From: Candidatus Aenigmatarchaeota archaeon
GTDB taxonomy: Archaea > Aenigmatarchaeota > Aenigmatarchaeia > JACPZZ01
Length of the DNA stretch: 64,000 nt
Direction of reading: 5' to 3'
NCBI GenBank assembly: GCA_016195275.1
Contig: JACPZZ010000001.1
Location: 3,046 to 67,045 of the forward strand
Shown here: positions 36,703 to 56,704 of the stretch, in pieces
Position numbering within the stretch: the first letter of the stretch is position 1
Layout of the letters: every line of letters begins with the position of its first letter
Position numbers and translations under genes: made by a program
The notes under the pieces: generated by a model
The model's database searches: none
What the model was told of the DNA's origin: nothing
Seen by the model: only the letters and a program-made list of their open reading frames with translations

Positions 36703-39700
36703 TTGAGCGATAAAACAATAGAAAAGGCCGAGAAGGTCAAAAGCGCACAGGAGATGTCGCGGGACCAGAGGGAAATTTCCGTTTCGGAGTTTTTTGAGAA
36801 AAACAGACATCTTCTCGGCTATGACAACAAGGTGAAGGCGTTATTGACCGTTGTTAGAGAGGCTGTCGATAACAGCCTTGATGCTTGTGAAACGGCGCGC
36901 ATAGTCCCTGACATAAAAGTTTCTGTTAAGCCTGTTAATGACGTGAAGGACAGATACGTTATATTAGTCGAGGATAACGGGCCCGGGATTGTAAAACAAA
37001 ATATTGGCCGTGTGTTCGGAAAACTGTTGTTCGGGTCAAAATTTCATAAGCTTATCCAATCATTGACCGGGGACGAGCCTGTTTTTGTGATACGAAACGG
37101 CAAAACCGAAATAATACCGATAGGAAACCTAGTAAATTCTTACCTTCAACCCGAAGAAACTGAAAAGAACGTGTTAGATCATGATCTTCTTGTACCGGCT
37201 TTCGACCGTGAAACATACAAATACAGATTCGCGAGAGTGAGCCATGTAATACGGCACAAAAGGGAAAATGAGATTGTTAAGCTTACTTTAAACACAGGAA
37301 GGACTCTTAAAGTAACAGGTTGCCACAGCATATTCTCAATAAATCCTGCGACTGGCGGGCTTGAAGAAACCGAGGCAAGAAACCTAAAAATCGGGGACTA
37401 TATAGCGATTCCCAAAAAGCTGCCTTCTTTAGAGATTTCCGAAATTAACCTTCTGGACTACTTAAGTTACGAGCATATCAAAGACAACTGGGCTTACGTT
37501 TACGGCATAAACGGCGGTATTTTTGAAAAACTTATTGAAGGTGCTGAGGCTGTGCATAAAAAGACGGACAAGAGCAGAAAATATTACAGGCTGTTTACCG
37601 GAAACAAAGAACCCGTAGACATATTAGACGACAGCATGAAACAATACATGAACAAAAACTTCCTGCCAATTCAGCTTGTGCTAAAGCTGGGGCTGAAAGA
37701 CGCGGTAAAAGGCGGTTTCATCAAAACTTATTGTCGTGGCAAGGAGACGAGAATACCTGTTTCTCTGGAAATGACGGACAAACTGGCCAGGTTCTTGGGG
37801 TTGTTCGTGGCAGAAGGTCACAGCGATAAAAGGCAGATAGCACTGACCTTCGGCAGGCATGAAGACCATCTTATTGACGAAGTTCTTAATTTCGCAAGAA
37901 TATTCGGTTTGAATACCACCCTAGAACACAGAAAAAATTCCATTAGGATCAAGCTGTTTGGTAATATGTTCGTAAAATTTGTATCCGATGTTTGTGGTGT
38001 GGGCGCCCACAACAAAAAAGTGCCGGAGTTTGTTTTCAGAGCCGGCCACATCATGCGCCAGCACTTCTTGGACGCTATTTACCAAGGCGACGGCCACAAA
38101 GTGAAAGGAAGGAATAACATAATGCTCAATACAGTTAGCAAACGGCTTGCGAATGAAATAATGTACCTGTGGTCCATGCAAGGCATAGCCGCCTGCATAA
38201 CCAGCCGAACAAATAAGAACGGTTTAGGCAGATTCCCTTCTACCTGTTACGTAGTCAATGTTTACGGGAACGATATAAACAAATCCTTTGTTTATTCTTG
38301 CCCGAATACGGAAAGGACAGCAAGACAGATAGAATACGAGTCTGTAAAACAAATCTCCATAAACTCCAACCAATTGGTTAAGAGTAAGCTTATCGAGTCT
38401 GATATATTGATGGTTAAAATCAGGAACATTGAAACAATAAACGAAGGGCACGATCTCGTCTATGACCTTTCAGTTACAAAATCCGAAAATTTCGTTGGCG
38501 GTTTCGGGGGAATTGCATGCCACAACAGCCGCGGACAACAGGGCATAGGCATTTCGGGCGCAGTGCTTTATTCACAATTAACGAGCGGCAAGCCCTCTAA
38601 AATTGTTACGTCCACAGGCGACGGCAAGACGCATTACATGGACCTGATGATCGATACGTTCAAAAATGAGCCGGAAATTCTCAAGGAAGAGATAAAGGAA
38701 GGAAAAAGTTGGCACGGCGTCAAAGTCGAAATGGAGGTGGAGGGAAAGTACGTTGAACACCAGCAGTCAATTTCGGAGTATCTGAAACAAACGGCGATGT
38801 CAAATCCCTACGCAGAAATAATTTACGACTCGCCCAACGGCAAAATTAAATTTGAACGCTCGGTAAAAACGCTTCCCGAGGAGCCGAAATCGATTAAACC
38901 GCATCCGCACGGCGTAGAAATAGGAATTTTGAGGCGAATGCTCAAAACGACAGAAGCGCGCACGCTAACAGGGTTTTTCACAAGCGATTTTTCCAGGGTC
39001 GGCCAAAGCTCTGCAAAAGAAATAATAAGGCTTGCAAAGCTTGGCGACGATGTGGGCCCGAAAAACATAGACGGCCCGCAGGTAGAAAAGCTGTTTCAGG
39101 CAATACAACAGGTGCAATTGATAAAACCTCAGTTGGATTGTTTATCGCCTCTCGGGGAAAAATTAATAGAGGAGGGTTTGAAGAAACAACTGAAGCCCGA
39201 GTATGTTGTTGCAATAACGAGGCCGCCGGATGTTTACCGAGGAAACCCGTTCCAGATTGAATGTTGCACGGGGGATACAAAAATAATTTTGGAAAACGGG
39301 TCGGTTGTTGACATAAAAAATTACATCGAAAACGGTATGTTCAAAAAATACGACAAAGTGCTGTCAATGACAAAGGATCTAAAGATAAAACCCCAGAAGG
39401 TTCACGCTGTGCAAAAATTCAAAAATGTGCACAAGATCCTGAAGATAGAAACCAGGACAGGAAGGGTGCTTAAATTAACCCAGAACAACGAGCTTCCAAC
39501 GATAATCAACGGAGAAATAATATGGAAAGCAGCCGGCGAACTCGGGGCCGGGGATTTTGTAGCAACCCCGAGGAGACTGGCCGTTGACGGGAGAAAACCT
39601 CACATTTTGGAGTTAATGGACGAAGATTGTGTAAAGGTACATGATATAGAGGCTGTAAGATATTTGATGTCCAAATGCGCATCGAAATTTTACGGTATCA

Positions 39701-41361
39701 AGAATGTTGCAAAAAATCTTGGAATAGATTACAACACCCTAAAAAGTTACAACCGGAAGAACTCGTCAGTCGGCAGGCCGACACTTTCGACACTGAGAAA
39801 ATTGTGCGAGTTGTCAGGTTCCGATTACCCCGGCACGATGAAATCTGTCAAAGAAATATCCTACGCAGACAACGGTTTTCCGAATCCTGTGAAGATAACA
39901 GTGCCGGACGTATGCGAAGACCTGCTTTATGTACTGGGGCTGCTAAATTCCGATGGTTATATTAGCAAACGAGAAATCGTGTTTACAAATATCGATCCCA
40001 CGCTGCACGAGGCGTTTGCTCAAAAAACTGAAAAGTTATTCGGTATTAAAGTAAAAAGCTATAGACCGTTCACATCGTCGTTCTCAAATAAAACCGTGTA
40101 TAATGTGTTGCGGGTCCTTGAGGATCATCTTCCGGAGTTGGACGACAGTCTTATAGTTTCTTGGCTTAAAGGCGTTGCCGACGGGGATGGGTGGGTGGCC
40201 TGTAGAAAAGGAAAAATCAGATCTATAGGCATTGCCACCGCAAAAAGAAATGAGGCGGAATTTGTGCAAACAATGCTTTTGAGGTTGGGTATACAATCGA
40301 AAATTGAAAGGCAGCTTCCTAGCAACACCGTAGGAAAGACAGGGGACAGGATCATAAAAACATTGAAGCCGAAGGATAACATAGTCATATACGATTTCTG
40401 GAACGTTGCAAAGTTCGCCTCTTTAGTTGGTTTCAGACAGCAAAAAATGGCGAGAAGGCTCGCTGAATCCATTGTTAACACGATAGACTGCAAGCAACAG
40501 CATGATGTATTGGATGTTGGCGTATTACTCAAACGGCTGAGGCAAGAAAATGGCTTATTCCAACATTCCTTGTGCTTTTCGGATCAGACGATAAGGCAGG
40601 CGGAAAAATCTAACCGGATGCTAACGCGCAACAACTTACAGTCGTTGCTGACCTCGAAGCAGCTTAAGGGTGATGCCTACGGAGCCTTAAAGCTGCTGGC
40701 ATTCTCGGATATTCTGTGGGACAGGATAATCGGTATAACAGAGGTCCCACACGAAGAATATGTTTATGATCTTACTATGGAATCGGATAATTTTGTAGCC
40801 GACAATATCGTGATGCATAACTGCGGCATCGCTTATGGTGGCGAGCTGCCGGCGGAGTCTGTTGCGACATTGTACAGGTTCGCGAACCGTGTTCCGCTAA
40901 TGTACCAGGCCGGCGATTGCGCGCTGGCGAAGGCTGTTAGTGAAATTGAATGGCGCAGATACGGGCTGGAACAGGGTTCCGGTGCGTCATTGCCGACGGG
41001 CCCTGTTGTAATATTCATTCATATCGCGTCTGTTTGGGTGCCTTTTACATCCGAATCGAAAGAGGCGATTGCCTCATACCCGGAAATAATCAAGGAAGTA
41101 AAACTCGCACTCCAGGACGCCGGGCGAAAAATGAGCATTTACGTGAACAAGAAGAGAAGGGCCGGCGAGGCTGCGATGAGGATAAGCCTGTTTGAAAAAT
41201 ACATACCAGAAGTTTCCGACGCATTGGCAAGGTTAAGCGGCGCAGACAAACATAAAATCGCCTCTAAGCTTGAAAATATGCTAAAGAAGGGAAAAATCGT
41301 AATAGAGGATACGGGAGAACAGGAAGAGGACAAAAAAACCGCCAAGGAAGAGGATGAATAA
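36703..41361 (+). CDS. top6B: DNA topoisomerase VI subunit B carrying two inteins (extein about 543 aa)
   Basis: TTG start. GHKL motifs: VREAVDNSLDA, VEDNGPGI, GKLLFGSKFHKLIQ|SRGQQGIGISGAVLYSQ. Transducer: GNPFQIE|CGIAYGG. Confidence 0.92.
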   Translation: MSDKTIEKAEKVKSAQEMSRDQREISVSEFFEKNRHLLGYDNKVKALLTVVREAVDNSLDACETARIVPDIKVSVKPVNDVKDRYVILVEDNGPGIVKQNIGRVFGKLLFGSKFHKLIQSLTGDEPVFVIRNGKTEIIPIGNLVNSYLQPEETEKNVLDHDLLVPAFDRETYKYRFARVSHVIRHKRENEIVKLTLNTGRTLKVTGCHSIFSINPATGGLEETEARNLKIGDYIAIPKKLPSLEISEINLLDYLSYEHIKDNWAYVYGINGGIFEKLIEGAEAVHKKTDKSRKYYRLFTGNKEPVDILDDSMKQYMNKNFLPIQLVLKLGLKDAVKGGFIKTYCRGKETRIPVSLEMTDKLARFLGLFVAEGHSDKRQIALTFGRHEDHLIDEVLNFARIFGLNTTLEHRKNSIRIKLFGNMFVKFVSDVCGVGAHNKKVPEFVFRAGHIMRQHFLDAIYQGDGHKVKGRNNIMLNTVSKRLANEIMYLWSMQGIAACITSRTNKNGLGRFPSTCYVVNVYGNDINKSFVYSCPNTERTARQIEYESVKQISINSNQLVKSKLIESDILMVKIRNIETINEGHDLVYDLSVTKSENFVGGFGGIACHNSRGQQGIGISGAVLYSQLTSGKPSKIVTSTGDGKTHYMDLMIDTFKNEPEILKEEIKEGKSWHGVKVEMEVEGKYVEHQQSISEYLKQTAMSNPYAEIIYDSPNGKIKFERSVKTLPEEPKSIKPHPHGVEIGILRRMLKTTEARTLTGFFTSDFSRVGQSSAKEIIRLAKLGDDVGPKNIDGPQVEKLFQAIQQVQLIKPQLDCLSPLGEKLIEEGLKKQLKPEYVVAITRPPDVYRGNPFQIECCTGDTKIILENGSVVDIKNYIENGMFKKYDKVLSMTKDLKIKPQKVHAVQKFKNVHKILKIETRTGRVLKLTQNNELPTIINGEIIWKAAGELGAGDFVATPRRLAVDGRKPHILELMDEDCVKVHDIEAVRYLMSKCASKFYGIKNVAKNLGIDYNTLKSYNRKNSSVGRPTLSTLRKLCELSGSDYPGTMKSVKEISYADNGFPNPVKITVPDVCEDLLYVLGLLNSDGYISKREIVFTNIDPTLHEAFAQKTEKLFGIKVKSYRPFTSSFSNKTVYNVLRVLEDHLPELDDSLIVSWLKGVADGDGWVACRKGKIRSIGIATAKRNEAEFVQTMLLRLGIQSKIERQLPSNTVGKTGDRIIKTLKPKDNIVIYDFWNVAKFASLVGFRQQKMARRLAESIVNTIDCKQQHDVLDVGVLLKRLRQENGLFQHSLCFSDQTIRQAEKSNRMLTRNNLQSLLTSKQLKGDAYGALKLLAFSDILWDRIIGITEVPHEEYVYDLTMESDNFVADNIVMHNCGIAYGGELPAESVATLYRFANRVPLMYQAGDCALAKAVSEIEWRRYGLEQGSGASLPTGPVVIFIHIASVWVPFTSESKEAIASYPEIIKEVKLALQDAGRKMSIYVNKKRRAGEAAMRISLFEKYIPEVSDALARLSGADKHKIASKLENMLKKGKIVIEDTGEQEEDKKTAKEEDE
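37060..38526 (+). mobile_element. Top6B intein 1 (489 aa, LAGLIDADG domain), inserted in the ATP-lid motif
   Basis: Starts SLTGDEPVFV and ends GIACHN followed by SRGQQGIG. Blocks: LARFLGLFVAEGHS and RQHFLDAIYQGDGHK. Confidence 0.85.
39262..40821 (+). mobile_element. Top6B intein 2 (520 aa, LAGLIDADG domain)
   Basis: Starts CCTGDTKIIL and ends NIVMHN followed by CGIAYGG. Blocks: LLYVLGLLNSDGYI and IVSWLKGVADGDGWV. Confidence 0.85.
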
Positions 41362-43162: not shown

Positions 43163-43172
43163 GCTATTTAAC
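43163..43172 (+). promoter_or_regulatory. candidate TATA box for tRNA-Asn
   Basis: GCTATTTAAC lies about 35 nt upstream of the tRNA 5' end. Confidence 0.4.
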
Positions 43173-43202: not shown

Positions 43203-43382
43203 GCCCCGGTAGCTCAGACTTCTTTGCCGCTTTAAAGGCAACGAGAAGGAGCAATAGGTAGAGCGCATGGCTGTTAACTGCGAAAGCTACGCTGTGTCTT
43301 TCGGTTGGCTGCGACCATGAGGTACTGTTATCGGGCTGCCCGAAAAACAGGCACAACGGTTGTTCGAGTCAACCCTGGGGCG
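43203..43382 (+). tRNA. tRNA-Asn (anticodon GUU) interrupted by three introns: 43218..43254 (37 nt, D-loop 15/16), 43277..43313 (37 nt, 37/38) and about 43324..43356 (33 nt, variable loop 47/48)
   Basis: The spliced 73-nt product is GCCCCGG TA GCTC AGTAGGTA GAGC G CATGG CTGTTAA CCATG AGGTC GGTTG TTCGAGT CAACC CTGGGGC G. The D-loop intron has a perfect BHB (GCTC|AG^A|CTTCT...AGAAG|GAGC|AA^T). Lengths sum exactly (73 + 107 = 180). Confidence 0.75.
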
Positions 43383-43385: not shown

Positions 43386-43399
43386 TTATTTTTTTATTC
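43386..43399 (+). terminator. oligo-T terminator after tRNA-Asn
   Basis: TTATTTTTTTATTC begins 4 nt after the discriminator base. Confidence 0.6.
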
Positions 43400-43463: not shown

Positions 43464-43685
43464 ATGATATTAGCGAATTACAAAGACAGATCCGGCGAGA
43501 AAATAAAGATAAGAACGCCTAAAATCGGCGATGCGAAAGAGATGGCCGGAAGCTACTACAGGAAAAGTTTGGAAACTCACAAACAACTCCTGAAAAGTGG
43601 GGAAATATACCCTATCGTGGACAGCGATGGAGTTAGAAGATGCTGTGATTGCGGGTTTGAGTTGGATAGCCTGATTGAGGATTGA
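43464..43685 (+). CDS. small hypothetical protein
   Basis: 73-aa ORF with no motif apart from a CCDC cluster. Confidence 0.3.
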   Translation: MILANYKDRSGEKIKIRTPKIGDAKEMAGSYYRKSLETHKQLLKSGEIYPIVDSDGVRRCCDCGFELDSLIED

Positions 43686-43687
43686 TA

Positions 43688-44509
43688 TTATGGACTGGAT
43701 AACCGAGCAGCCATGTTATAACTATTTATTGGGTGTAAGAAACGGCGACTATAAATCTGCTGGCCTTTGATTCCAAGTTTTTCAATAACATCTTTTACAG
43801 TGTGTTCACCAAATCTTTGACTTTTATTTTTTGATACTGGTTTTTCGGCCTTCGTTTTCCCCGATTTGCCAGAATATATCTCCCATAATTCTTTATTCTT
43901 TTTGATCAAACTTTGTGCTTTCTCCGTTAAAGCTACGCCAAAATTTTCCACAGGTCGTACCAATTCTAGGCTTCTGCAGAGATAGTGATCTAATATCTGC
44001 GTTGGATCTCCAATCACAGTCTTCATAACTTTATCTGATTCGCCGAGCAAGATATCACACGTTCTTAAAAACTTGCTCATAAAAGCTGGCTGGTCTGGCG
44101 TGGAGGAGACGATTACAGCCGACAGAACTATTCCTAGCGAGTTTTCCAAGCCTTCCAGGCCAAAACTTCGGGAAAGCTCATCCCAATAGTTGTCAAGGAG
44201 AATTGATGCCATGTCCTGATTTGTTATTGTTGTCAGGTTATTTCTTAAAAGCTTGTCCTCTAACTTCTCTGTGAATATGGCCAACCTTTCATCCTTTATT
44301 TCGATTATCCCTGCGTTCTTCAAATGTTCCATGTCTCTGTTAAAGCTGGGGAACATTGCAGAAACTATGTCAACCGGAGCAGAACCTCCTGCCTTGAACA
44401 TGAACCACAGTACATCTGATAACTCATTGATTTTTGGCGATAATTTTAGAAATTCTTTTGAGAAGGTTTGCCTTGTCAGTTCGACTATATCTTCTTTTAC
44501 CACTCTCAT
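43688..44509 (-). CDS. unknown-function protein, paralog family member 3 (winged-helix-like N-terminus, basic tail)
   Basis: 273 aa. Shares ELTRQTFSKEFLKLSPKI...TPDQPAFMSKFLRT with 44534..45253. Confidence 0.6.
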   Translation of the reverse strand: MRVVKEDIVELTRQTFSKEFLKLSPKINELSDVLWFMFKAGGSAPVDIVSAMFPSFNRDMEHLKNAGIIEIKDERLAIFTEKLEDKLLRNNLTTITNQDMASILLDNYWDELSRSFGLEGLENSLGIVLSAVIVSSTPDQPAFMSKFLRTCDILLGESDKVMKTVIGDPTQILDHYLCRSLELVRPVENFGVALTEKAQSLIKKNKELWEIYSGKSGKTKAEKPVSKNKSQRFGEHTVKDVIEKLGIKGQQIYSRRFLHPINSYNMAARLSSP

Positions 44510-44533
44510 TACTTTTAATTCATCCTAAAGAAT

Positions 44534-45253
44534 TTATACGAATTCCATCTCTTCTTTTACTCTTATAGGCTCCTCGGTCTCAACGGGTTTTTCTTCCTTT
44601 TTCGCCACCGGCTTTATTTTGATATCTTTCTTTTTGCTGCTGTAGAGCTCTGATAGTTCATTGTCCATCTGTATTAACTGCTTAGCTTTTTCAGAAAGAG
44701 CCACTCCGACATTTCCAAAAGGCTCTACAAGGTCGAGAGGGAAAATATAGTTGTCCAAAACCAACCTCGGGTTGCCGAGCACGCCTTCCAGTTTCAACTC
44801 TCCAATAATGTTGGCAGAGGTTCGCAGTACTTTGCTCATAAAAGCTGGCTGGTCTGGCGTGGAGTTCGCGATTATTCCCGACAGTGTTGCCGATAGCGAA
44901 TTTACAAATTCCTCCATCCCAAAACTGTCCAGCAATTTGTCTAAATAGTTGTCTAATAGTATCGATGTAACATCAGATTCTGTTATATCCCTCAAATCTT
45001 TACTCAACAGTTTTTCCTCAAACTTTTCCTTGAGAACTACCAGGTCGCTATTCATTTCGATCAAGCCTGCTTTGATCATCCCCTGTGAATCTTCATTGAA
45101 ATTTGGAAATCTTACAGATATGGCATTCGTATGGGTGAAACCGCCTGTCTTAAAAACAAACCATAGGATTTCTGAAATTTCTCGTATTTTTGGCATCAAT
45201 CGAAGGAACTCTTTTGAGAAGGTTTGCCTTGTCAGTTCGACTATCCTTTCCAT
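44534..45253 (-). CDS. unknown-function protein, paralog family member 2 (Lys/Glu-rich tail)
   Basis: 239 aa. MERIVELTRQTFSKEFLRLMPKI...TPDQPAFMSKVLRT...KKKDIKIKPVAKKEEKPVETEEP. Confidence 0.6.
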   Translation of the reverse strand: MERIVELTRQTFSKEFLRLMPKIREISEILWFVFKTGGFTHTNAISVRFPNFNEDSQGMIKAGLIEMNSDLVVLKEKFEEKLLSKDLRDITESDVTSILLDNYLDKLLDSFGMEEFVNSLSATLSGIIANSTPDQPAFMSKVLRTSANIIGELKLEGVLGNPRLVLDNYIFPLDLVEPFGNVGVALSEKAKQLIQMDNELSELYSSKKKDIKIKPVAKKEEKPVETEEPIRVKEEMEFV

Positions 45254-45606
45254 GGTATTATTTTACCCATAAAAGTTAAATACCCATGTTTTGTAAGAAC
45301 CCTATAGGGTAGTATCACCAAATTACATAATTTGAGGGGTGGTGATACCAAGTGATAGTTAGTAACTCTGGGTTATTAAGGTTTGCTTCAAAGTGCTTTA
45401 GGCTGGTGCCAAAGGTGATGCCAGAATATTCTTCCAAAAAGGAATATAACCAAAGATAGAAGAGCGAGGCTGCCACTTCATCTGTAAAGAGGAAATATGG
45501 TGATAATGTAAGTTCAGGGGGATGAGGCTCACGGCTTTTGTTTACATGTGGACAGAGATTCAAGGGGTTTTATTGTAGGATTTATACAGAGCAAATACCT
45601 ATCGAT

Positions 45607-46374
45607 TCAAACCCACGGAAAGTACTGCCTTAACTTTCTCAACCTCCCTTCCTCTTCTTTACTGTAATATTTTATCACAGGTTTTTCTGTCGGTTTTTCA
45701 ACAGGCTTTTCTTCTTTCTCAACCGCTTCTGGCTTATATTCTTCTTGATAAGCCTTAAAAACTTCTTCGTCGTTGCTAATCCTTTTCACAGCTTTTTCGG
45801 AGAGGTTTATCATAATTCCATCTTCTATTTTTATAAGGCCCAGAAATCTATTCAGATAATAATTAAGAATTTCCTTGCATTCAATAGGCGGGGCATTCCA
45901 TGTCCTGGTGGACTCCCTGTATATACGCCCAACAAACGCAGGCTTTTCGGGAGTTGCGTATCTGATGATTAAGGATAGCACGGTTGTTATGAAATCCGTT
46001 AATTTGTTTCTGCAAAATCCTATTAGCTTTTGTCCGGCATACCCGAATGTCAGCTCAGCAAACATATCTTTTGTCAACGGCTCTTTGTCTATGATAAAAT
46101 TTGCAAACTGTTTATCCAAAGATAAAAAAACGTTTGTGTCTTTATTTTTGCCAAGTGTCCCGAGCGCATGCCACACAATCAGCTTCATTTCAGAAAGAAA
46201 CATGATTTTATTTTCAATGGCCTCATCGACTTCAAGCTGGAATGTTACAAATTTCATAGGCACGACAGCTCCAATCTTGTGCAACGCCCACAGTATATCT
46301 ATATAACCCAATGCTCTGGGCGAAAGCTTGAGAAGATCTTCGGCAAATACAGCTTCAACCCTTCTAAGTTCCAT
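45607..46374 (-). CDS. unknown-function protein, divergent paralog family member 1 (Glu/Lys/Pro-rich tail)
   Basis: 255 aa. LLKLSPRALGYIDILWAL...ATPEKPAFVGRIYRES...EEYKPEAVEKEEKPVEKPTEKP. It starts 34 nt downstream of the MinD/ParA gene. Confidence 0.6.
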   Translation of the reverse strand: MELRRVEAVFAEDLLKLSPRALGYIDILWALHKIGAVVPMKFVTFQLEVDEAIENKIMFLSEMKLIVWHALGTLGKNKDTNVFLSLDKQFANFIIDKEPLTKDMFAELTFGYAGQKLIGFCRNKLTDFITTVLSLIIRYATPEKPAFVGRIYRESTRTWNAPPIECKEILNYYLNRFLGLIKIEDGIMINLSEKAVKRISNDEEVFKAYQEEYKPEAVEKEEKPVEKPTEKPVIKYYSKEEEGRLRKLRQYFPWV

Positions 46375-46408
46375 ATATGGATATTAATTTCGAAGATTAA
46401 AATGATTA

Positions 46409-47266
46409 TTACGCGCCTCTCCCCAATTTTTTAAAGTATCCTAAAAACCTTTTTATCAAGCCCGGCTTTTCTTTGGGTTCTATGGCAGGCTCTCTGAACG
46501 ACTCACCAAATCTCCCAACGCCTTTATCTTTTTCCGGTTTTTCTCCAACCAGACTTGCGGCGAGTTGTATATATGCTTGGCTTGCCCTGGAACCAGGATT
46601 TGATAATATTACCGGGGTTTTTGAGTTCACGCTCTGTAGAATACTTTCATCCTCCGGAATAGACCCAATTATAGGTAAGGCTGTTAATCTTTCTACTTCA
46701 CTTTCTGATAGCTCATAATCCTTTCCTTTTACTCTGTTCATTAAAACACCAATGGGTTCGATATCGGCAACACCGTCCTGGGTCAGCTTAATGGAGAGGT
46801 TCACGATTTTTGCAACGTCAACCGCCGAAGGTATGAAAGGATTCGCAATAAAAAGCACTTTATCACATGCCTTCAAAGCCATCAAAGCCTCTCTATCAAT
46901 ACCAGGCGCAGAGTCAAGCAATACGATGTCAAACATTTCCGACAAATTCTTTATAGTTTTTGTAAAAAGTTCATGGTCTATTCCTTGTAGATCCTGTATA
47001 TTCAAAGAAGCTGGTATTATCCGAAGACCGGAAGGATGGATGTACAATGCTCCAGCCAACGATGCCCTGTTCTGCAAAACTGAATTTAGTGTTATTGGTG
47101 TAATGTAAATTCCAAGATATAAACCAATATGGGCCGTGGTAAGATTACAGTCCACCAGGGCAACTTTTTTATTAAAGTGCTCTGTTAGGGCTAATCCAAG
47201 GTTTATAGCAGTCGTCGTTTTCCCAGCCCCGCCTTTTCCGCTAACTATACCGATAATCCTACCCAA
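46409..47266 (-). CDS. MinD/ParA-family deviant Walker A ATPase with a C-terminal amphipathic helix
   Basis: GIVSGKGGAGKTTTAINLG (deviant Walker A) and IVLLDSAPG (Walker B). The C-terminus PGLIKRFLGYFKKLGRG resembles a MinD membrane-targeting sequence. Confidence 0.85.
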   Translation of the reverse strand: MGRIIGIVSGKGGAGKTTTAINLGLALTEHFNKKVALVDCNLTTAHIGLYLGIYITPITLNSVLQNRASLAGALYIHPSGLRIIPASLNIQDLQGIDHELFTKTIKNLSEMFDIVLLDSAPGIDREALMALKACDKVLFIANPFIPSAVDVAKIVNLSIKLTQDGVADIEPIGVLMNRVKGKDYELSESEVERLTALPIIGSIPEDESILQSVNSKTPVILSNPGSRASQAYIQLAASLVGEKPEKDKGVGRFGESFREPAIEPKEKPGLIKRFLGYFKKLGRGA

Positions 47267-47320
47267 AGCATCACACCACTGATTTTAGATTGATCCTGAG
47301 CTTTAAATGGTTTTTGTATT

Positions 47321-47644
47321 TTAATTTTCCTTGTTGGATGGTTTTTGAGGCGGCGCGATAGAAACTAGTGGCTGAGAATCTGCTTTTAGCGCATCGTTGT
47401 TTTGATTTTTCCCCTTTCTTTCAATTTCTTCTGAATAATGCTTTCGCACGTTTTCATCCCAAGCTTCCATTAAGCCATAACCAAGCATTGTTGCCATGCC
47501 TGCAATTGCGGCCCTTAAATTAATGCCGATCAATGGGATGCCTGAAAGGGTGATCACAACATCTGCGTTAATAACAACCCCTGTATCCAGAATAGCATTC
47601 AGAAGGTCCACCAGTTTGTAATTCAAGTCTCTTTTCGGTTCCAT
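47321..47644 (-). CDS. gvpM: gas vesicle protein, GvpA-family minor component (GvpJ/GvpM-like)
   Basis: LVDLLNAILDTGVVINADVVITLSGIPLIGINLRAAIAGMATM is the GvpA/J/M core. I cannot separate J from M by eye. Confidence 0.75.
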   Translation of the reverse strand: MEPKRDLNYKLVDLLNAILDTGVVINADVVITLSGIPLIGINLRAAIAGMATMLGYGLMEAWDENVRKHYSEEIERKGKNQNNDALKADSQPLVSIAPPQKPSNKEN

Positions 47645-47648
47645 TCAA

Positions 47649-48461
47649 TCAACCCACAAAATGGAAGGGGGGCCAGGGCCCAGAAAATCGAACAGATAGT
47701 CCATGTATTTTATTGGTCTCTTCCAAGAACTTGCCTAAGGCTTCGATTTTGCTATTATGCACGAGACAGGATAGATTTAGAATCATCTCTTTGTCTTTCC
47801 ATTTTCCATCTTCTATATTAATTGTTTTTTCGGCTTTCATTTCTTCCGCAGAGTCTTTAACCTGATCACAAATTTTTTTAGAATATTCTTTATAATATTC
47901 CTCCACCTTCCTCCTTGTTTCATTGATAACTATCAGCTCAAGTTTTTTCTGAAGAACGTAAGCAATGCCCTTGGGCTTCGTTTCAATGTCCATTTTTAAC
48001 CTTTGAATTTCCTCGTTGGTGCTTTCAATTTCTTGGCTAGTGGAACCAGTATCCATGAAAATTTGAATATCGTATTCTGCTTTTCCGTCTAATCTTTCTA
48101 AACTGTTTTTAAGCTTGTGATACTCCGCGCTTAACCATTTCCTTACGTCATCCTCGGTTCCTTTGATTATAGTGTCAAAGGCAAACGGAACGACAGCGCC
48201 GAATTTTTTTGCTGCTGCGTCAATCGTATACAGATGCGAAAAAAGCCACGATTTCACCTCTTCCTCTTTGTTTGATTTGTATGGTTTAGCCAAGCATTTG
48301 TGGACTATGACGCCTATGTCCTTATATAGTATGGCATACACCCTATTATTCCCTATTCCTATGTTCCCAAAACCGGTTTCTGCGCCGCAATTGGTTACAC
48401 AATAGAGATATACGCCTTCGCCAACACTCTCTTCACATTTAACATCATTCACTTTTTTCAC
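47649..48461 (-). CDS. gvpL: gas vesicle protein GvpL/GvpF family
   Basis: GVYLYCVTN...FGNIGIGNNRVYAILYKDIGVIVH...FSGPWPPFHFV. Confidence 0.8.
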   Translation of the reverse strand: MKKVNDVKCEESVGEGVYLYCVTNCGAETGFGNIGIGNNRVYAILYKDIGVIVHKCLAKPYKSNKEEEVKSWLFSHLYTIDAAAKKFGAVVPFAFDTIIKGTEDDVRKWLSAEYHKLKNSLERLDGKAEYDIQIFMDTGSTSQEIESTNEEIQRLKMDIETKPKGIAYVLQKKLELIVINETRRKVEEYYKEYSKKICDQVKDSAEEMKAEKTINIEDGKWKDKEMILNLSCLVHNSKIEALGKFLEETNKIHGLSVRFSGPWPPFHFVG

Positions 48462-48762
48462 CCTGTGGTTCCAAATACACCAACTTCAGAAACATGTTGC
48501 TCAAGGTTTCTCTTAATTTTTCCCTGTTTTTAAAATGATTTTCCCCTTCAACCTTCATCTCTATGCCATTGTCAGAATTTGTAACTACAATCACCGGGAA
48601 TCTTTTGATGGAATGCTTCTTTATGTACCTTACAAAATCCATTTCCCTGGCCCCTATCTTGTCCACATGAATTTTGCTTTCTTCGTGGAGTTCATCGAGA
48701 ATGCCCTCTGCCAATTGCGTATCTTTATCTTTTATGCTGTATATCAACCTTGTAATTATCAT
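48445..48762 (-). CDS. hypothetical protein within the gvp operon
   Basis: 105-aa ORF whose stop overlaps the gvpL start. No known Gvp family recognised. Confidence 0.5.
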   Translation of the reverse strand: MIITRLIYSIKDKDTQLAEGILDELHEESKIHVDKIGAREMDFVRYIKKHSIKRFPVIVVTNSDNGIEMKVEGENHFKNREKLRETLSNMFLKLVYLEPQGEKSE

Positions 48763-48766
48763 GCCG

Positions 48767-49297
48767 TTACCTTTTCTTCATTTTTACAGACAAAAAACCT
48801 TTCTCTTCACCTTTCCTGTATTCTATTTCTACATCTTTGACATAGCATTTTAATGGAACTTCTTTACGATATTTTCCATCTTTTGTTTCTATGATAAGCT
48901 TTTTACCTATAGGGTAGACTTTTAAATCGCTTTCTTCTACAGGCGGGGTTTCCTCCCACACAACTATAGTCTTAATGTCCTCTTCTTTCTTAGGAATTTC
49001 TCCTGTTACCAGCGTTCTTACAGAATAAGAATATTCTATACGCGGTTTGCCTGACCATCCTTTCTCCAGCCTAGACTTTATCTCTTTATCGGTTTCTTCA
49101 ACCCTTTTCTGGAGTTCTGGGGACGCTTTGATTAACTTGCTTACAAATTTTCCTAACCCGGGGATAAAGTTGCCCACGAGTTCCTCTACCGAAGAGATTT
49201 CAGGCTTCTTTTCCTTCTCTTTTTCAAGTTTTTCTGTTTTCTTTTCAAGTTCCTCTATCCTTTCCTTGTCTTTTTTCTTTTTTTTCATTCGCTTCAC
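48767..49297 (-). CDS. GvpH-like / Hsp20-like protein with a Lys/Glu-rich N-terminus
   Basis: 176 aa. The C-terminal ...LIIETKDGKYRKEVPLKCYVKDVEIEYRKGEEKGFLSVKMKK resembles the alpha-crystallin beta7-beta9 pattern. Size and position fit GvpH. Confidence 0.45.
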   Translation of the reverse strand: MKRMKKKKKDKERIEELEKKTEKLEKEKEKKPEISSVEELVGNFIPGLGKFVSKLIKASPELQKRVEETDKEIKSRLEKGWSGKPRIEYSYSVRTLVTGEIPKKEEDIKTIVVWEETPPVEESDLKVYPIGKKLIIETKDGKYRKEVPLKCYVKDVEIEYRKGEEKGFLSVKMKKR

Positions 49298-49300
49298 TCT

Positions 49301-49615
49301 TCATTCGTATGCGGCTACTTTCCCCTCGTTTTGAATGTCCATCTCTCCTATAGCGCTGTTCACTATTTTGTCAAGATCGCCGTTAATGGAATTAACTGTG
49401 TCCTCGAGGTCATTTTCTTTTTTGATATGCCTGATGGTATCATCTAAATCTATCAGGGCATTGCCTAATTTTTCAACTTCTTCTCCGGTCAACCTGCCCA
49501 ACTCCATCCTTCTTATTGCCTGATGCTCTAATGCGTCTTTGATTATCTCAACAAGTGTAATTACTAAACCAAGCAATCCCTTTTTGAGGTTATCCTCATC
49601 GATTTTGACAGTCAT
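49301..49615 (-). CDS. gvpK: gas vesicle protein GvpK
   Basis: LKKGLLGLVITLVEIIKDALEHQAIRRMELGRLTGEEVEKLGNAL. I placed the start at the ATG that forms an ATGA overlap with the upstream stop. The track start at 49651 is the alternative. Confidence 0.8.
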   Translation of the reverse strand: MTVKIDEDNLKKGLLGLVITLVEIIKDALEHQAIRRMELGRLTGEEVEKLGNALIDLDDTIRHIKKENDLEDTVNSINGDLDKIVNSAIGEMDIQNEGKVAAYE

Positions 49616-49947
49616 GCCATCACAGCAACCCTTTTCTTGCATTTTGGGCAACCATGTCCTTCAAAAAACCTTTTTCCTATCAATTCTCCACACGTGGGGC
49701 AATACGTCAAGTCTCCTTGTTCTCTCAGCGCTTTCCATCCTGGAGCATCATAATTAACTCCTGAAGGAAATTCCAGGCCGTACTTTGCTGCTGTTGCGAG
49801 CGAAGCCAGGGTTGCCCTTATTTTTATTCCCAGCAGTTCGGTGCCAGCAACTGATACAACAATGTCCGCGTTTATGACTATGCCTTTGTCTAAAAGTTTA
49901 ATTAACGCTTCAGGAAGCGTCATGACTTCTCTATTATGTGTTATCAT
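49612..49947 (-). CDS. gvpJ: GvpJ-like (GvpA-family) protein fused to a C-terminal CxxC...CxxC zinc ribbon
   Basis: LPEALIKLLDKGIVINADIVVSVAGTELLGIKIRATLASLATAAKYG is the GvpA/J core. The C-terminus is ...YCPTCGELIGKRFFEGHGCPKCKKR. Confidence 0.75.
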   Translation of the reverse strand: MITHNREVMTLPEALIKLLDKGIVINADIVVSVAGTELLGIKIRATLASLATAAKYGLEFPSGVNYDAPGWKALREQGDLTYCPTCGELIGKRFFEGHGCPKCKKRVAVMA

Positions 49948-50324
49948 AGCGCTTTTCCCTCATTTCTATTTGAGGTGGCGGATTTTAACCTCATTCCGTA
50001 CAATCTTTTTTTTGGTTGTATATCAGAATATCTGGGCCTTGCAGGGATTGTTGAAAATTTGCATCCCAACCTGTCTCCTCTTTTTTCAGGTTGTGATGAA
50101 AACGCTGAAGGGTTTAAGTTTTTTGGCCTGCCCGCTTTCTTCATAACCATTAATCGTTTATTGAGATTCACTTTTCTAGCGTATCGAATACTGTTCTGGA
50201 TTAGACTTGACCTCGCCCTGTCCCTCCACATCTGCATTTTCTTTTTCGTTTTTGCTATTATATTTTTTCTGCGCACGCCTGTCCTCATAATTTTGCCAAC
50301 GGAGAAATTTCCTATAGGTCCCAT
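49944..50324 (-). CDS. highly basic hypothetical protein in the gvp operon (possible GvpI analog)
   Basis: 126 aa, very Lys/Arg-rich. It fills the gap between gvpG and gvpJ exactly, with overlapping start and stop codons on both sides. Confidence 0.4.
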   Translation of the reverse strand: MGPIGNFSVGKIMRTGVRRKNIIAKTKKKMQMWRDRARSSLIQNSIRYARKVNLNKRLMVMKKAGRPKNLNPSAFSSQPEKRGDRLGCKFSTIPARPRYSDIQPKKRLYGMRLKSATSNRNEGKAL

Positions 50325-50614
50325 TATGCAACGCCTCCTAATATGTCCATCCTCTGGTCTAATTTCATCTCCCTTGCTTTTACACCCAGTTCCAGCTTCT
50401 CTCTCAAATCAGCATCAATTATTTTGTAATCTTCTTCAGTCCTTTCTCCAATTTCAAAAAGCAATCTGTTTTCTTTTATCATATCTTTGATTTTCGGAGG
50501 ATCATACGCTTCCTTATAGGCAAAATCCCGTATGAGTTTGAATAAAGCAATAGTGTCGAAGGGCAGTATGGAAATGCCAAGAAGCCTTAAAACAATATCA
50601 TCTATGATGAACAC
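50324..50614 (-). CDS. gvpG: gas vesicle protein GvpG
   Basis: MFIIDDIVLRLLGISILPFDTIALFKLIRDFAYKEAYDP...FEIGERTEEDYKIIDADLREKL matches the GvpG pattern. Confidence 0.7.
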   Translation of the reverse strand: MFIIDDIVLRLLGISILPFDTIALFKLIRDFAYKEAYDPPKIKDMIKENRLLFEIGERTEEDYKIIDADLREKLELGVKAREMKLDQRMDILGGVA

Positions 50615-51277
50615 CTACTCGCCTCCTCCTATTTTTATTTTTACAAAATTGTATGGTGGCCAAGGTCCGGTATACTGAATCTTTGGAGCGAGCATTTTTT
50701 CCACCTCATCCACTTCTTTGGAAAATTCCTTAATTTTATTTTTTTCAACCAAGAATGACGCATTCAGGAGCAGCCTCTCGCTAAATAGTTTGGCGTTAAC
50801 AGACTCTACGGCTTTTTTCTTAAGCGACTCAAAAATATACGAAGCGAACTGGATTTTCTTTTCTCCAAGCAATTCCATAAGTTCTTTGCCCAAGACGATC
50901 TTAATTCCGAGCTCAACTTTGTTGTCTAATAATGCCAAAGATTTTTTAATCGCATCATAGCTTTTCTCTAGCACCGAAAGCAGGACTTCTTTATCTTTAA
51001 ATGCCATGCCAAACGCCATCGGTATCACCGTATGTTCTTTCATAACCAGAGTGGCAACTTCATTGTGCGCTTTTATGTTTTCTTCGGTTGATTGATAATC
51101 TGTCAGGGGCGTGTCGCTTACAACAGCGGATATTCCTTTATAAGGAATGGTATAGACTTCGCTGAAATTTCCAATTCCCTTGTTGCCAAAACTTGCTGGT
51201 TTCTCGGTGTTGGCAATTATGCAGTAAACATATTTTCTTTCTTCTATTACGGGATCTTTTCCTGTTTTCTTACTCAT
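50615..51277 (-). CDS. gvpF: gas vesicle protein GvpF
   Basis: KYVYCIIAN...FGNKGIGNFSEVYTIPYKGISAVVSD...YTGPWPPYNFV. Confidence 0.85.
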   Translation of the reverse strand: MSKKTGKDPVIEERKYVYCIIANTEKPASFGNKGIGNFSEVYTIPYKGISAVVSDTPLTDYQSTEENIKAHNEVATLVMKEHTVIPMAFGMAFKDKEVLLSVLEKSYDAIKKSLALLDNKVELGIKIVLGKELMELLGEKKIQFASYIFESLKKKAVESVNAKLFSERLLLNASFLVEKNKIKEFSKEVDEVEKMLAPKIQYTGPWPPYNFVKIKIGGGE

Positions 51278-52121
51278 AGTTAATCATCTGTTTTTTATTT
51301 CTATAATCTGACAACAAGAATTTGGTCAGAATGCCGCTGATCTTGATATGTTCCTCAAGGCTATCTTTTACTTCATGCAAAGAAATATCAACAAGTTTGT
51401 AGATCTTCTTTTTTACAACATACTCATATTGTATCATGCCCTTCTTTTCCAAAGTATGAAGGAGTGGGTATATCGTGCCTGGGCTGAGAAATACGTTGAA
51501 GTTTTTATGCACCGCCTTTATCATATCCGTACCACACATGGGCTTATTCATTAGCAAAGCAAAGATTATCATTTTCAAATCGTTTTTCACATACCGCTCT
51601 ATGGAATCATCTTTGATAACCTTGTCAATAGACTCGGACGATAAAATTGAAATATCGCCTGACGTGAGTATTAGCTTGTCATGATGTGCCACTAAATCCT
51701 TGATAATGGCTGGGTCTATCTTTGTAACATCATATACGCATGATATTGAAGAATTCTTTTGGAATCCCTCTGTCAGGCACTTTTCGTATTTGGCGTGGTC
51801 TTCTTTAGCGATTGAGGCAGCGTCAAAAATTATCTTCAGCTTTCTTTTGCCAGGTTTTAGCGTGCTTAATTTTTCCGGTCTTAATATGGATATATTTGCT
51901 CCCAGTCCATTAAATTTTTTCATTCCGCTGTCAGGGTCGTCATTGGTTACATAGATCACTTTTTCATTTTTTTCTGTTGTAGCCAAAAGTGATGCTTGAA
52001 GCGCACCTTTGTCAATATCCGGGGTATAAAAAACTAAGCCGTGCTTAAAATTGCCCATATCAGATAAAATTGATTTTACATCCAATTTTCCCGAGTTCAT
52101 ACTATTTACCCCTCTCATCAA
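51270..52121 (-). CDS. putative gvp regulator: N-terminal KaiC/RecA-like domain without an obvious P-loop, plus a C-terminal PadR-type winged helix
   Basis: The C-terminus IIFALLMNKPMCGTDMIKAVHKNFNVFLSPGTIYPLLHTLEKKGMIQYEY is a PadR signature. Paralog of 54895..55896. Confidence 0.6.
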   Translation of the reverse strand: MMRGVNSMNSGKLDVKSILSDMGNFKHGLVFYTPDIDKGALQASLLATTEKNEKVIYVTNDDPDSGMKKFNGLGANISILRPEKLSTLKPGKRKLKIIFDAASIAKEDHAKYEKCLTEGFQKNSSISCVYDVTKIDPAIIKDLVAHHDKLILTSGDISILSSESIDKVIKDDSIERYVKNDLKMIIFALLMNKPMCGTDMIKAVHKNFNVFLSPGTIYPLLHTLEKKGMIQYEYVVKKKIYKLVDISLHEVKDSLEEHIKISGILTKFLLSDYRNKKQMINYE

Positions 52122-52404
52122 TCAAGTCTGACCTGCGTCTTACCATTATTTGCCTGTAGTTCAAAAGTTTACCGCCAGGGCTGAACTCCAATTCATACCT
52201 ACCGAGAAGATCCTGAGTGTCCGGAACAGCCTTTCTTTCCAATGTTTCTATCACAGCTTTCCATCCCTGGTCATCTTTGACAACACTCACAATTTGTTCT
52301 ACCGGCTTGTTTACCAAATCTTTCAATGCAGAAAGCCCCAATTTACCTATCTCCACCGGACTCTTTTTCTCCTGTATTATCTCACGGGATGTAGATTTTT
52401 TCAT
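52102..52404 (-). CDS. gvpO: gas vesicle protein GvpO
   Basis: VEQIVSVVKDDQGWKAVIETLERKAVPDTQDLLGRYELEFSPGGKLLNYRQIMVRRRSD matches the GvpO pattern. Confidence 0.75.
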   Translation of the reverse strand: MKKSTSREIIQEKKSPVEIGKLGLSALKDLVNKPVEQIVSVVKDDQGWKAVIETLERKAVPDTQDLLGRYELEFSPGGKLLNYRQIMVRRRSDLIDERGK

Positions 52405-52747
52405 TTACGATCTCCACCGGCTTGCCGATCCAAGTTTTTATCCCCGCTACTATATCATAACCTTCTAATTTTTCTGCTAATTTGTAGTATTTAACAAATC
52501 TGTAAAGCCTTTGGAGGGTCGACTTGCCACGACCTAGAGGTATGACATCAACCGTGTGATCAGGTTTAATACAAGTATAAAAAGTTTCCTTTACCGATTC
52601 CCCGTCCTTTTTTGCTGTCACAACAATAATTTCTGTGTCGTGAAAACCAACCGGTGCCGGCTTCCTAGGAAGGCTGCTTATCCTTACAATTTTTACGTTG
52701 CTTATTACTCCCCGGTCTTTTTTCAAGTTTTTCTCTTTTTGAACCAT
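52382..52747 (-). CDS. unknown protein in the gvp operon, short paralog
   Basis: 121 aa. Shares a domain of about 110 aa with the C-terminus of 52749..53459 (VKIV.I....RKP.....D..II......G...K.TFY..I.P...........K.......F..YYKLA..LE.YD...). Confidence 0.6.
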   Translation of the reverse strand: MVQKEKNLKKDRGVISNVKIVRISSLPRKPAPVGFHDTEIIVVTAKKDGESVKETFYTCIKPDHTVDVIPLGRGKSTLQRLYRFVKYYKLAEKLEGYDIVAGIKTWIGKPVEIVNEKIYIP

Positions 52748-52748
52748 A

Positions 52749-53459
52749 TCAAATTACCTCCGGGATTACAATTTTACCAGAGCTGTCTATTTTAACCGTT
52801 TTTCCCTTCCACCCCTTGGATTCCTCAATAACATCGTATTCTTCCAAGTTATCCGCCAGCTTGTAATACCGAAGGAAATTGATGAATTTTTGCTGGGTAG
52901 GAGTCTTCGCACGGCCATATTTTATACCGAGCATCCCGCCCGGCTCAATATAAGCGTAAAATGTTTTTTTCTCTTTTTTCCCTTCGGGAGTTTTTATTGT
53001 TATGATTATCGCGTCAGATTCTGAACTAAAAGCCGCGGGTTTTTTCCTCCACATATCCCTGATCTTTACAATTTTCACATCCTCTATCACGGGTTTTCTT
53101 AATCCGGCTTTGAATTTTTCCTTCTTCGGCTCTTGTAATTTCGGTTTTTCTTTCGGCTTGGACGGCTTTCTCACAACCTCCTCCTTTTCAACTCTGGTTT
53201 CTGGTTTTTCCGGCTCTTTAATCAGTCCTTCCGGAATTTCTATTATGGGTTGCGTGGGAATTTCTCTATGTTTTTCTAGTTCTAAAACCACAGTTTCTTT
53301 AATCTCTGCAGCAGCTTTAGGTTCCTCTATCCAAACCTCTTCTTTTCCCTCTACGTCAACTTTGCTAATCTCCTCTTTTTCTTTGATTTGATCCCTGAGG
53401 AGCTCAATCTCTTCCTCTTTTAATCTTTGCTTAGATGTTTCAGATGCCTGCCAAGTCAC
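52749..53459 (-). CDS. unknown protein in the gvp operon, long paralog with a Glu/Lys-rich N-terminal region
   Basis: 236 aa. About 120 aa of low-complexity E/K/P-rich sequence precede the shared C-terminal domain. Confidence 0.6.
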   Translation of the reverse strand: MTWQASETSKQRLKEEEIELLRDQIKEKEEISKVDVEGKEEVWIEEPKAAAEIKETVVLELEKHREIPTQPIIEIPEGLIKEPEKPETRVEKEEVVRKPSKPKEKPKLQEPKKEKFKAGLRKPVIEDVKIVKIRDMWRKKPAAFSSESDAIIITIKTPEGKKEKKTFYAYIEPGGMLGIKYGRAKTPTQQKFINFLRYYKLADNLEEYDVIEESKGWKGKTVKIDSSGKIVIPEVI

Positions 53460-54526: not shown

Positions 54527-54649
54527 TACATTACCTTTTTTATGATCGTTATTAGGATAGATAAGGTTTTTGTTTTGATTATTGTATCGAATTTCGATTT
54601 TAAAAATGAAAAATAAGCTTAAATATAGCCAAATTTAATTAATTAAATA

Positions 54650-54700
54650 GATTAATTAGATTAAGCTGGTTAACTAAGTTGAATTAACTGGATTAATTAG
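54650..54700. promoter_or_regulatory. four copies of a G(A/G)TTAA(T/C)TAAG-like motif in the divergent gvp intergenic region
   Basis: GATTAATTAG (54650..54659), GGTTAACTAAG (54668..54678), GAATTAACTG (54681..54690), GATTAATTAG (54691..54700). Confidence 0.4.
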
Positions 54701-54709
54701 CGTGATGAG

Positions 54710-54892
54710 ATGTTTAAATTAGAACGGAAGACGTCTATAGAAAAGCAAATGGCATGCGACATTTGTGAAAAAGCCACAGGCAAAGGCAGCCCGATGAATG
54801 TTTTCAGGTCGCCTCTTGCCTATACACATATTATCAACGTCTGTGACAACTGTATCCCCAATTTTCCCAAATCATTTATTAAGAAGGGTTAA
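54710..54892 (+). CDS. small zinc-ribbon protein, hypothetical
   Basis: 60 aa with CDICEK...CDNC, directly upstream of the PadR-like regulator. Confidence 0.35.
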   Translation: MFKLERKTSIEKQMACDICEKATGKGSPMNVFRSPLAYTHIINVCDNCIPNFPKSFIKKG

Positions 54893-54894
54893 AC

Positions 54895-56658: not shown

Positions 56659-56704
56659 CCCCATTTAATTTTTTAATTGTGGTTTAAACTAACGGAGGAA
56701 GAAA

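Follow-up and report, generated by a model that had tools for sequence, protein, structure and literature searches.

Can a tRNA gene that is interrupted three times within 180 nucleotides (nt) still be a working gene, and if so, what removes its introns? This question is raised by a locus in the window, our term for the whole 64,000-nt stretch analysed here, which comes from contig JACPZZ010000001.1 of Candidatus Aenigmatarchaeota archaeon and has a G+C content of 43.8%. The Aenigmatarchaeota are a DPANN phylum, listed under the kingdom Nanobdellati. In the gap between two minus-strand open reading frames (ORFs), just downstream of the genes for topoisomerase VI A and B, we find a tRNA-Asn(GUU) gene with introns at tRNA positions 15/16 (intron a), 37/38 (intron c) and 47/48 (intron d), which lie in the D-loop, the anticodon loop and the variable loop, respectively. 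It is very probable that this is a functional, single-locus gene whose three introns are spliced out by proteins.

Excision of the introns joins the exons into a 73-nt sequence, GCCCCGGTAGCTCAGTAGGTAGAGCGCATGGCTGTTAACCATGAGGTCGGTTGTTCGAGTCAACCCTGGGGCG, which ARAGORN recognizes as tRNA-Asn(gtt) with a complete cloverleaf. This product has an acceptor stem GCCCCGG/CTGGGGC with one G·U pair, a D-arm GCTC-AGTAGGTA-GAGC in which AGTAGGTA is the D-loop, an anticodon arm CATGG-CTGTTAA-CCATG, a variable loop AGGTC, a T-arm GGTTG-TTCGAGT-CAACC and the discriminator G73. The initial annotation of the window had arrived at the same product, with its G73, anticodon loop CTGTTAA and variable loop AGGTC, by removing three segments, the last of which it placed at "about 43324..43356"; spliced alignment to an intronless ortholog independently reproduced all three boundaries. 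Intron c can be slid to 38/39 or 39/40 with the product unchanged; the solution for intron d is unique, with 47/48 alone reproducing the AGGTC loop. The raw 180-nt gene elicits no ARAGORN call, and no Rfam match to it is obtained at the gathering score or at E<=10 from either the whole window or a 381-nt slice; these misses reflect a limit of the detectors and constitute no evidence against the gene. As to the covariance-model check that had been proposed along with the gene, the intronless ortholog (L012), which differs from the spliced product only in the 28:42 pair (G28:C42 for A28:U42), scores 69.4 bits on the Rfam tRNA family RF00005 (gathering score 29) and is called as tRNA-Asn by ARAGORN; hence, the model does not reject such a product.

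Orthologs of the gene were collected by three routes. Close homologs of Top6A, whose closest proteins are from uncultivated DPANN archaea, led to syntenic loci in which top6A is followed within a few hundred bases by this tRNA gene, while the other two routes were scans of genomes and of metagenomes with a 3'-exon pattern. The genome scan recovered six records, of which five are labeled Candidatus Aenigmatarchaeota archaeon (groundwater and other metagenome-assembled genomes, MAGs) and one uncultured archaeon. Upon spliced alignment to the shortest gene, all 14 orthologous genes reduce to one and the same 73-nt mature tRNA. Across the family the insertions occupy four sites, namely a at 15/16, b at 20/21, c at 37/38 and d at 47/48, in combinations that range from none to all four (Table 1). 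Each of the three introns of the window gene is missing at its exact junction in some orthologs: intron a in L003, L008-L010 and L012-L015 (being present in L002, L004, L005, L011 and L016), intron c in L004, L009 and L012, and intron d in five orthologs, against ten that carry it. This proves the gene structure, and the single tRNA-Asn(GUU) gene with three introns that had been proposed from the letters of the window thus stands.

The exons and the introns have fared very differently in these orthologs. In the 13 independent ones the exons are identical to those of the window at 70-73 of the 73 positions, a match well beyond coincidence, whereas the introns show 57-92% identity, except for one 13-nt mini-intron at 24%. 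The differences in the mature tRNA comprise G28:C42 versus A28:U42, C4:G69 versus U4:A69, G6·U67 versus G6:C67, and U16C in the D-loop. Exon 1, for instance, is identical in 11 of the 13 other orthologs, and the remaining two (L005 and L016) have a U4 that is compensated by A69. Thus, the stem differences are compensatory and the structure has been preserved. A TATTTAA box is found upstream of all 14 genes, ten of which have it at -34 to -39 and the other four at -69 to -76, and a run of five to eight T residues lies at +6/+7 in 10 of the 14, with that of L016 at +11. Taken together, the near-invariant exons, the diverging introns and the conserved TATTTAA box and T-run point to a functional gene with exons under selective constraint. 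The TATA-like box and T7 tract from which expression had been surmised were both located in the window, and their conservation among the orthologs is consistent with the gene being expressed.

The four genes in which the box is displaced from about -38 to the more distant position are those of L002, L012, L015 and L016. In at least L002 and L015 the additional leader contains a perfect hairpin, GACTCACACC-TTTGG-TGTGAGTC, situated 35-75 nt upstream of the tRNA-Asn; the 5' leader may thus contain another element that is processed.

Table 1. Coordinates of the tRNA-Asn(GUU) locus and related features of the window, followed by the intron content of the tRNA-Asn family (positions in these last rows are those of the respective locus)
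Feature	Positions	Strand	Details	Basis
TATTTAA box	43165-43171	+	archaeal TATA-like element, 38 nt upstream of tRNA position 1	read directly
Interrupted tRNA-Asn(GUU) gene	43203-43382	+	180 nt	read from sequence
Exon 1	43203-43217	+	positions 1-15 (acceptor 5' strand, U8 A9, D-stem 5' strand, A14 G15)	
Intron a	43218-43254	+	37 nt, D-loop site 15/16, relaxed HBh' motif	
Exon 2	43255-43276	+	positions 16-37 (D-arm remainder, G26, anticodon stem 5' strand, C32-A37 including anticodon GUU)	
Intron c	43277-43313	+	37 nt, canonical 37/38 site	
Exon 3	43314-43323	+	10 nt, positions 38-47 (A38, anticodon stem 3' strand, A44-U47)	
Intron d	43324-43356	+	33 nt, variable-loop site 47/48; hairpin with relaxed junction motif	
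Exon 4	43357-43382	+	positions 48-73 (C48, T-arm, acceptor 3' strand, discriminator G73); CCA not encoded	
T7 run	43389-43395	+	at +7, likely archaeal terminator	read directly
EndA	62569-63213	+	catalytic-type tRNA-splicing endonuclease subunit	tblastn with EndA of relatives
tRNA-Ile(UAU) intron	12794-12735	-	site 29/30, 60 nt	
tRNA-Ile(UAU) intron	12725-12685	-	site 38/39, 41 nt	
tRNA-Ile(UAU) intron	12663-12536	-	site 58/59 or 59/60, 128 nt	
L012	4563-4635		no introns, 73 nt	
L004	11717-11826		intron a	
L009			intron b	
L003	11717-11835		intron c	
L002			introns a + c	
Window (= L001), L011, L016			introns a + c + d	
L008, L010, L013, L014, L015			introns b + c + d	
L005 (= L006)	11154-11356 (= 7829-8031)		introns a + b + c + d, 203 nt	

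We then asked what marks the exon-intron junctions. Inserts of 33-37 nt are far from the length of group I or group II introns (above ~200 nt), and no Rfam match was found in the region at E<=10. Archaeal-type splicing was assessed through the bulge-helix-bulge (BHB) motif, in which the 5' bulge was taken as the last two exon nucleotides plus the first intron nucleotide, the 3' bulge as the last two intron nucleotides plus the first exon nucleotide, and the helix between the bulges as 4 bp. The minimum free energy (MFE) fold of the precursor contains the motif of intron a and misfolds the remainder; accordingly, geometric scoring of BHB motifs and constrained folds were used instead. None of the three junctions of the window gene has the strict hBHBh' motif.

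Intron a comes closest, with GCTC[AG^A]CTTCT…AGAAG·GAGC[AA^T] providing two 3-nt bulges, a full 4/4 central helix (GCTC/GAGC) and a 6-bp inner helix that covaries among the orthologs; the GAGC segment mimics the 3' strand of the D-stem. The "perfect BHB" originally claimed for it is borne out for the bulges, the central helix and the inner helix but not for the outer helix, which is absent, and the motif is therefore of the relaxed HBh' type. Intron c has the 5-bp anticodon stem as its outer helix, the 3' bulge CG^A and a 3/4 central helix CUGU/GCUG with a U33·U mismatch, which becomes 4/4 in two orthologs with GCGG. The alternative boundaries at 38/39 and 39/40 yield worse motifs, with central helices of 0/4 and 2/4, and were rejected. 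A conserved segment of intron c, GGUUGG, can pair with UUAACU.

The case of intron d is more intricate. The initial annotation had described a clear CTGTT/AACAG inner helix and a poor central helix, and this is what we observe: the 5-bp inner helix is spaced exactly as in a BHB (5' side, 1 nt; 3' side, 6 nt), and the hairpin shows covariation, with C-G to U-A changes at one inner-helix pair and twice in the apical stem. By contrast, the central helix in the strict register is 0/4. An unbiased BHB scan that also allowed 4-nt bulges, with ~10,300 candidates per sequence, recovered in L005 and L008 a relaxed motif exactly at the comparative splice sites, available only in an alternative fold of the precursor. 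Its outer helix consists of U36·G53, A37-U52, A38-U51, C39-G50 and C40-G49 (UAACC/GGUUG, 5 bp), followed by the 3' bulge AA^C48, the central pairs A41-U, U42-A and G43-C, a 4-nt 5' bulge G45 G46 U47^A and the 5-bp inner helix CUGUU/AACAG. The central helix of this motif is 3/4 in all but one of the eight distinct sequences bearing intron d, and in these seven the motif ranks first among the ~10,300 candidates. The fold sacrifices both the anticodon stem and the T stem, and we regard it as a plausible candidate for the substrate conformation. A fold of the alignment of precursors with both c and d was searched for a shared or cross-paired BHB of the two junctions, and showed only a competition between the 3' segment GGTTGG of intron c and the 5' strand of the T-stem. 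Within the window, intron d is the outlier among junctions when compared with the introns of a tRNA-Ile gene described below, whose central helices are 4/4, 4/4 and 3/4.

Relaxed junctions of this kind call for a permissive enzyme, and the window encodes a candidate. The only EndA homolog found in it combines the PF02778 and PF01974 domains of Pfam; its homology begins at 62590, which gives a protein of 207 amino acids (aa). The best matches in PDB are the enzyme of M. kandleri (5x89), followed by the alpha4 enzyme of M. jannaschii (1a79, E=6e-33) and the alpha subunit of N. equitans (3iey_A). With respect to 1a79, the window EndA has six additional residues, basic in character (…KIKRGPKEAHEH…), immediately ahead of the catalytic His, and the segment GVKIKRGPKEAHEH aligns without gaps to GVIPKKGKRSEREH of N. 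equitans (KIKRGPK to PKKGKR; loop 90-98 of the alpha subunit). Residues 90-98 of that loop (K93, K94, K96 and R97) are a candidate determinant of broad specificity (PMC3488258), and the loop has been named L3, with alpha4-type EndAs that possess it in DPANN accompanying more tRNA gene disruption (PMC5829648). As there is no strict hBHBh' at any of the junctions, the enzyme that cuts them would need broad specificity, which would fit a basic loop of the Nanoarchaeum type; with all three junctions relaxed, the match between substrate and enzyme is coherent. The window EndA is presumed to remove all three introns. In relatives it lies near the tRNA, in the order tRNA-Asn, aldolase, EF-1alpha, tRNA-Phe and EndA.

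These contexts suggest the following pathway. Transcription of the 180-nt precursor would start from the TATTTAA promoter and end at the T-run, after which EndA, encoded 19 kb downstream in the window, would cut the six exon-intron junctions, each as a relaxed BHB. An RtcB-type ligase would then join the four exons of 15, 22, 10 and 26 nt, RNase P and RNase Z would trim the ends, and CCA would be added. Removal of intron d probably requires the alternative precursor fold, in which GGUUG, the 5' strand of the T-stem, pairs with UAACC at positions 36-40. If this fold is real, introns c and d would be cut from different conformers, that is, sequentially.

Several observations weigh against this reading. 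For intron c, folding predicts a base-paired 5' site: the continuous helix formed by the GGUUGG/UUAACU pairing buries it and, once the cloverleaf is enforced, is better than the bulged BHB by ~5-6 kcal/mol. For intron d, the absence of any strict-register central pair extends to all ten carriers, the relaxed fold costs ~6 kcal/mol relative to the MFE, and in the window sequence itself an A41·C opposition lowers the relaxed central helix to 2/4, such that two candidates outscore it. Further, the window represents 64 kb of the genome, and an EndA beta subunit or a second, intronless tRNA-Asn gene may be encoded elsewhere. The observations on introns c and d could indicate that the insert of the variable loop, and possibly that of the anticodon loop, is processed otherwise, with other cut sites that yield a different variable loop, an obligatory order in which another intron has to be removed first, or a factor beyond EndA. 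Such a proposal could account for the missing strict central helix, for the need of an alternative fold with a 4-nt bulge, and for the fact that in the orthologs examined intron d always co-occurs with a 37/38 intron of the GGTTGGCKGCR or GCGGCA type. However, only a cut at 47/48 yields the AGGTC loop of the five orthologs without intron d, the same site is the best generalised BHB in seven of the eight distinct d-bearing sequences, and the spacing of the inner helix is precisely that of a BHB. We therefore consider departures of this kind to be improbable.

A second alternative, that of a decaying pseudogene in which a tRNA-Asn was hit by three insertions while a functional copy persists elsewhere, appears to us very unlikely. 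It would explain why standard tRNA finders reject the raw sequence and why thermodynamics disfavours two of the three junction motifs, and the 64-kb span of the data leaves room for another copy. Decay, however, is hard to reconcile with four intact exons that are 70-73/73 identical across 14 species-level orthologs, with stems that change only in a compensatory fashion even as the inserts diverge. Nor does it predict that inserts recur at the same four sites in many species with their covarying helices kept, that the promoter and terminator are conserved, or that the syntenic intronless and single-intron versions are the sole tRNA-Asn genes seen in their loci. Finally, an assembly artefact or chimera, with the inserts being mis-joined reads, might be entertained for an uncultivated population in which strain mixtures exist (L003 versus L004), but it is negligible in view of the identical 180-nt gene in an independent assembly (L001; Logan SRR12113409) and of the recurrence of homologous introns at these sites across over ten assemblies obtained independently (NCBI, Logan and JGI/ENA).

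With the gene thus best understood as a functional one with three protein-spliced introns, its family bears on how such introns come and go. Relatives have anywhere from zero to four introns in the same tRNA, indicating that these introns are still being gained and lost. The clearest instance is provided by L003 (an NCBI MAG) and L004 (an independent Logan assembly), which are ~99.8% identical over 20.5 kb with ~30 scattered point differences. The sole multi-base indels between them are the 37-nt intron a, present only in L004, and the 46-nt intron c, present only in L003; everything else amounts to point changes and one single-base gap. Intron content therefore changes at the strain level with no accompanying element. 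An L002-like ancestor with introns a and c could have given rise to both alleles through one precise loss each, or, alternatively, the alleles could have arisen by recombination. At a greater distance, the sister lineages L005 and L016 have identical c and d introns, differ in the presence of intron b and have divergent a introns.

The upper end of the series is the gene of L005 and L006, two independent assemblies, which has four introns and exons of 15, 5, 17, 10 and 26 nt. The 5-nt exon, TAGGT, is defined by a solution with two D-loop introns whose central helices are 3/4 and 4/4; a single 67-nt D-loop intron would destroy G18 and, by manual reading of the sequence, leave a central helix of only 2/4, and was discarded. 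The published maximum for archaeal tRNAs, as stated in reviews and in the paper on tRNAscan-SE 2.0, is three introns per gene (PMC4033280, PMC8450103), which this gene exceeds, and our literature search found no report of a four-intron archaeal tRNA.

We also looked for signs that the introns move between genes. According to Fujishima 2010, as cited in PMC4033280, near-identical introns in different tRNA genes of one genome are the signature of transposition in Thermoproteales. A BLAST comparison of all the tRNA-Asn introns against the window and 15 loci recovered homologs at the orthologous site only. The L003 intron also has a 20-nt match upstream of tRNA-Ile (12903-12922), which we attributed to chance.

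We tentatively raise the wider possibility, to which we would give somewhat less than even weight, that the Aenigmatarchaeota hold actively turning-over tRNA introns, as illustrated by the four sites, the four-intron lineage and the strains that differ in two introns. If true, precise intron gain and/or loss would be proceeding on a strain time scale with no visible mobile element, conceivably through recombination with spliced or partly spliced cDNA or through reverse splicing mediated by the endonuclease and ligase. On this view, a single-subunit EndA with a loop of the Nanoarchaeum type would also cut junctions devoid of the standard central helix, by way of an alternative precursor fold.

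Several known systems offer points of comparison. Multi-intron tRNAs with relaxed BHB motifs are well described in Thermoproteales (PMC4090602, PMC4033280), namely in Pyrobaculum, Thermofilum and Caldivirga (Sugahara et al. 2008, as related in PMC4033280, PMC4090602 and PMC8450103). As those accounts have it, a tRNA gene there has up to three short protein-spliced introns, one at 37/38 and the rest outside the canonical position, with 20/21 and 45/46 given as sites, the junctions are relaxed and standard finders miss the genes, all of which recalls the present case. The differences lie in the host, which is crenarchaeal there and a DPANN archaeon here; in the enzyme, which is an (alpha-beta)2 form with the crenarchaeal loop there, while here one alpha-type protein with the Nanoarchaeum-type loop is seen; in the sharing of introns between tRNA genes, of which we found none in the window and 15 loci; and in the maximum of three introns, compared with four in a sister lineage here.

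Within DPANN, the EndAs with the L3 loop (Kaneta et al. 2018, PMC5829648), the epsilon2 EndA of ARMAN-2 (PMC3488258, PMC3239211) and the split tRNAs of N. equitans are all associated with non-canonical and multiple introns, and the N. equitans alpha subunit shares with the window EndA the basic insertion around the catalytic His. However, no split or permuted gene is seen here, and the four newly added DPANN genomes named in PMC5829648 include no Aenigmatarchaeota. Disrupted tRNAs in DPANN were anticipated in that work, and our literature search found no description of such a gene in Aenigmatarchaeota.

A eukaryotic nuclear tRNA with three introns is similar in having them, flanked by BHB motifs, in the D-arm, the anticodon loop and a third arm, and ordered intron removal was shown for it by reverse-transcription PCR; it differs in its Sen-type endonuclease and in that its third intron interrupts the T-loop and not the variable loop. 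The tRNA-Thr(GGU) locus of Caldiarchaeum subterraneum resembles our strain pair in that intron number varies within one natural population, implying gain or loss over a short time scale (PMC3293823). There, the change comes with a 1.8-kb element bearing a recombinase and with a tRNA fragment, whereas L003 and L004 have no associated element. Thus, the kind of gene is already known, and what goes beyond the ordinary is an intron d without the standard central helix, the series from zero to four introns and the polymorphism between strains.

The gain and loss of archaeal tRNA introns is an old unsolved question, for which the evidence comes mostly from distant comparisons within Thermoproteales. 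Here, one locus presents a graded natural series of zero to four introns at four defined sites, including two near-identical strains. In combination with the presumed cognate endonuclease encoded nearby, this series allows direct tests of how introns are gained and lost, in which order they are spliced and which substrates a DPANN EndA accepts. Moreover, as neither ARAGORN nor Rfam detects the gene, tRNA counts, as well as statements on completeness or "missing tRNAs", will be too low for DPANN genomes annotated in this manner; such under-counting of DPANN tRNAs was already suspected (PMC5829648).

A second triple-intron gene, tRNA-Ile(UAU), is found in the window at 12522-12824 on the minus strand (303 nt). 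Three other exon models were discarded before the three-intron solution was reached; the 74-nt spliced product is called as tRNA-Ile(tat) by ARAGORN, and the raw gene is missed by both ARAGORN and Rfam. The initial annotation had noted two triple-intron tRNAs within 64 kb, which holds, and had extrapolated to a genome-wide proliferation, which is supported within the window by these two genes (Asn and Ile-UAU) and has its support confined to it. Of the six tRNA genes of the window, two have three introns, one has a single canonical intron and three have none, giving a total of seven introns.

The 128-nt T-loop intron of this tRNA-Ile (12536-12663, minus strand) resembles the plus-strand segment 4023-4086, with 88% identity over 65 nt. 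The latter lies immediately 3' of a 95-nt tRNA at 3928-4022 (plus strand) with G3:U70 and the anticodon GGC (tRNA-Ala by manual reading), which contains one canonical intron of ~22 nt and is found by Rfam and missed by ARAGORN. Both matching regions are made up of short hairpins, and they may represent a small repeated element associated with tRNA genes.

Between tRNA-Asn and EF-1alpha, ~17 kb of the window (~43600-60400) are absent from the syntenic relatives. This island includes genes of the gas-vesicle type, namely GvpL/GvpF at 47649-48461 and 50615-51277 and a GvpN-like AAA_5 ATPase at 53459-54526, along with a ParA/MinD gene, two PadR+MEDS regulators and three paralogous ORFs (239-273 aa), of which two were scanned against Pfam without a match, the third being their paralog. 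One would not expect a gas-vesicle island beside a tRNA gene in a DPANN archaeon. We looked for a duplicated tRNA 3' end that might mark its integration site and found none. On the other side of the tRNA-Asn gene, topoisomerase VI subunit B (36703-41361, plus strand) is 1552 aa long, as against ~540 aa in L002, L003 and L016, while L005 has a 1024-aa version with one intein and L017 one of 1646 aa; by this comparison, the window gene appears to carry two intein/homing-endonuclease insertions.

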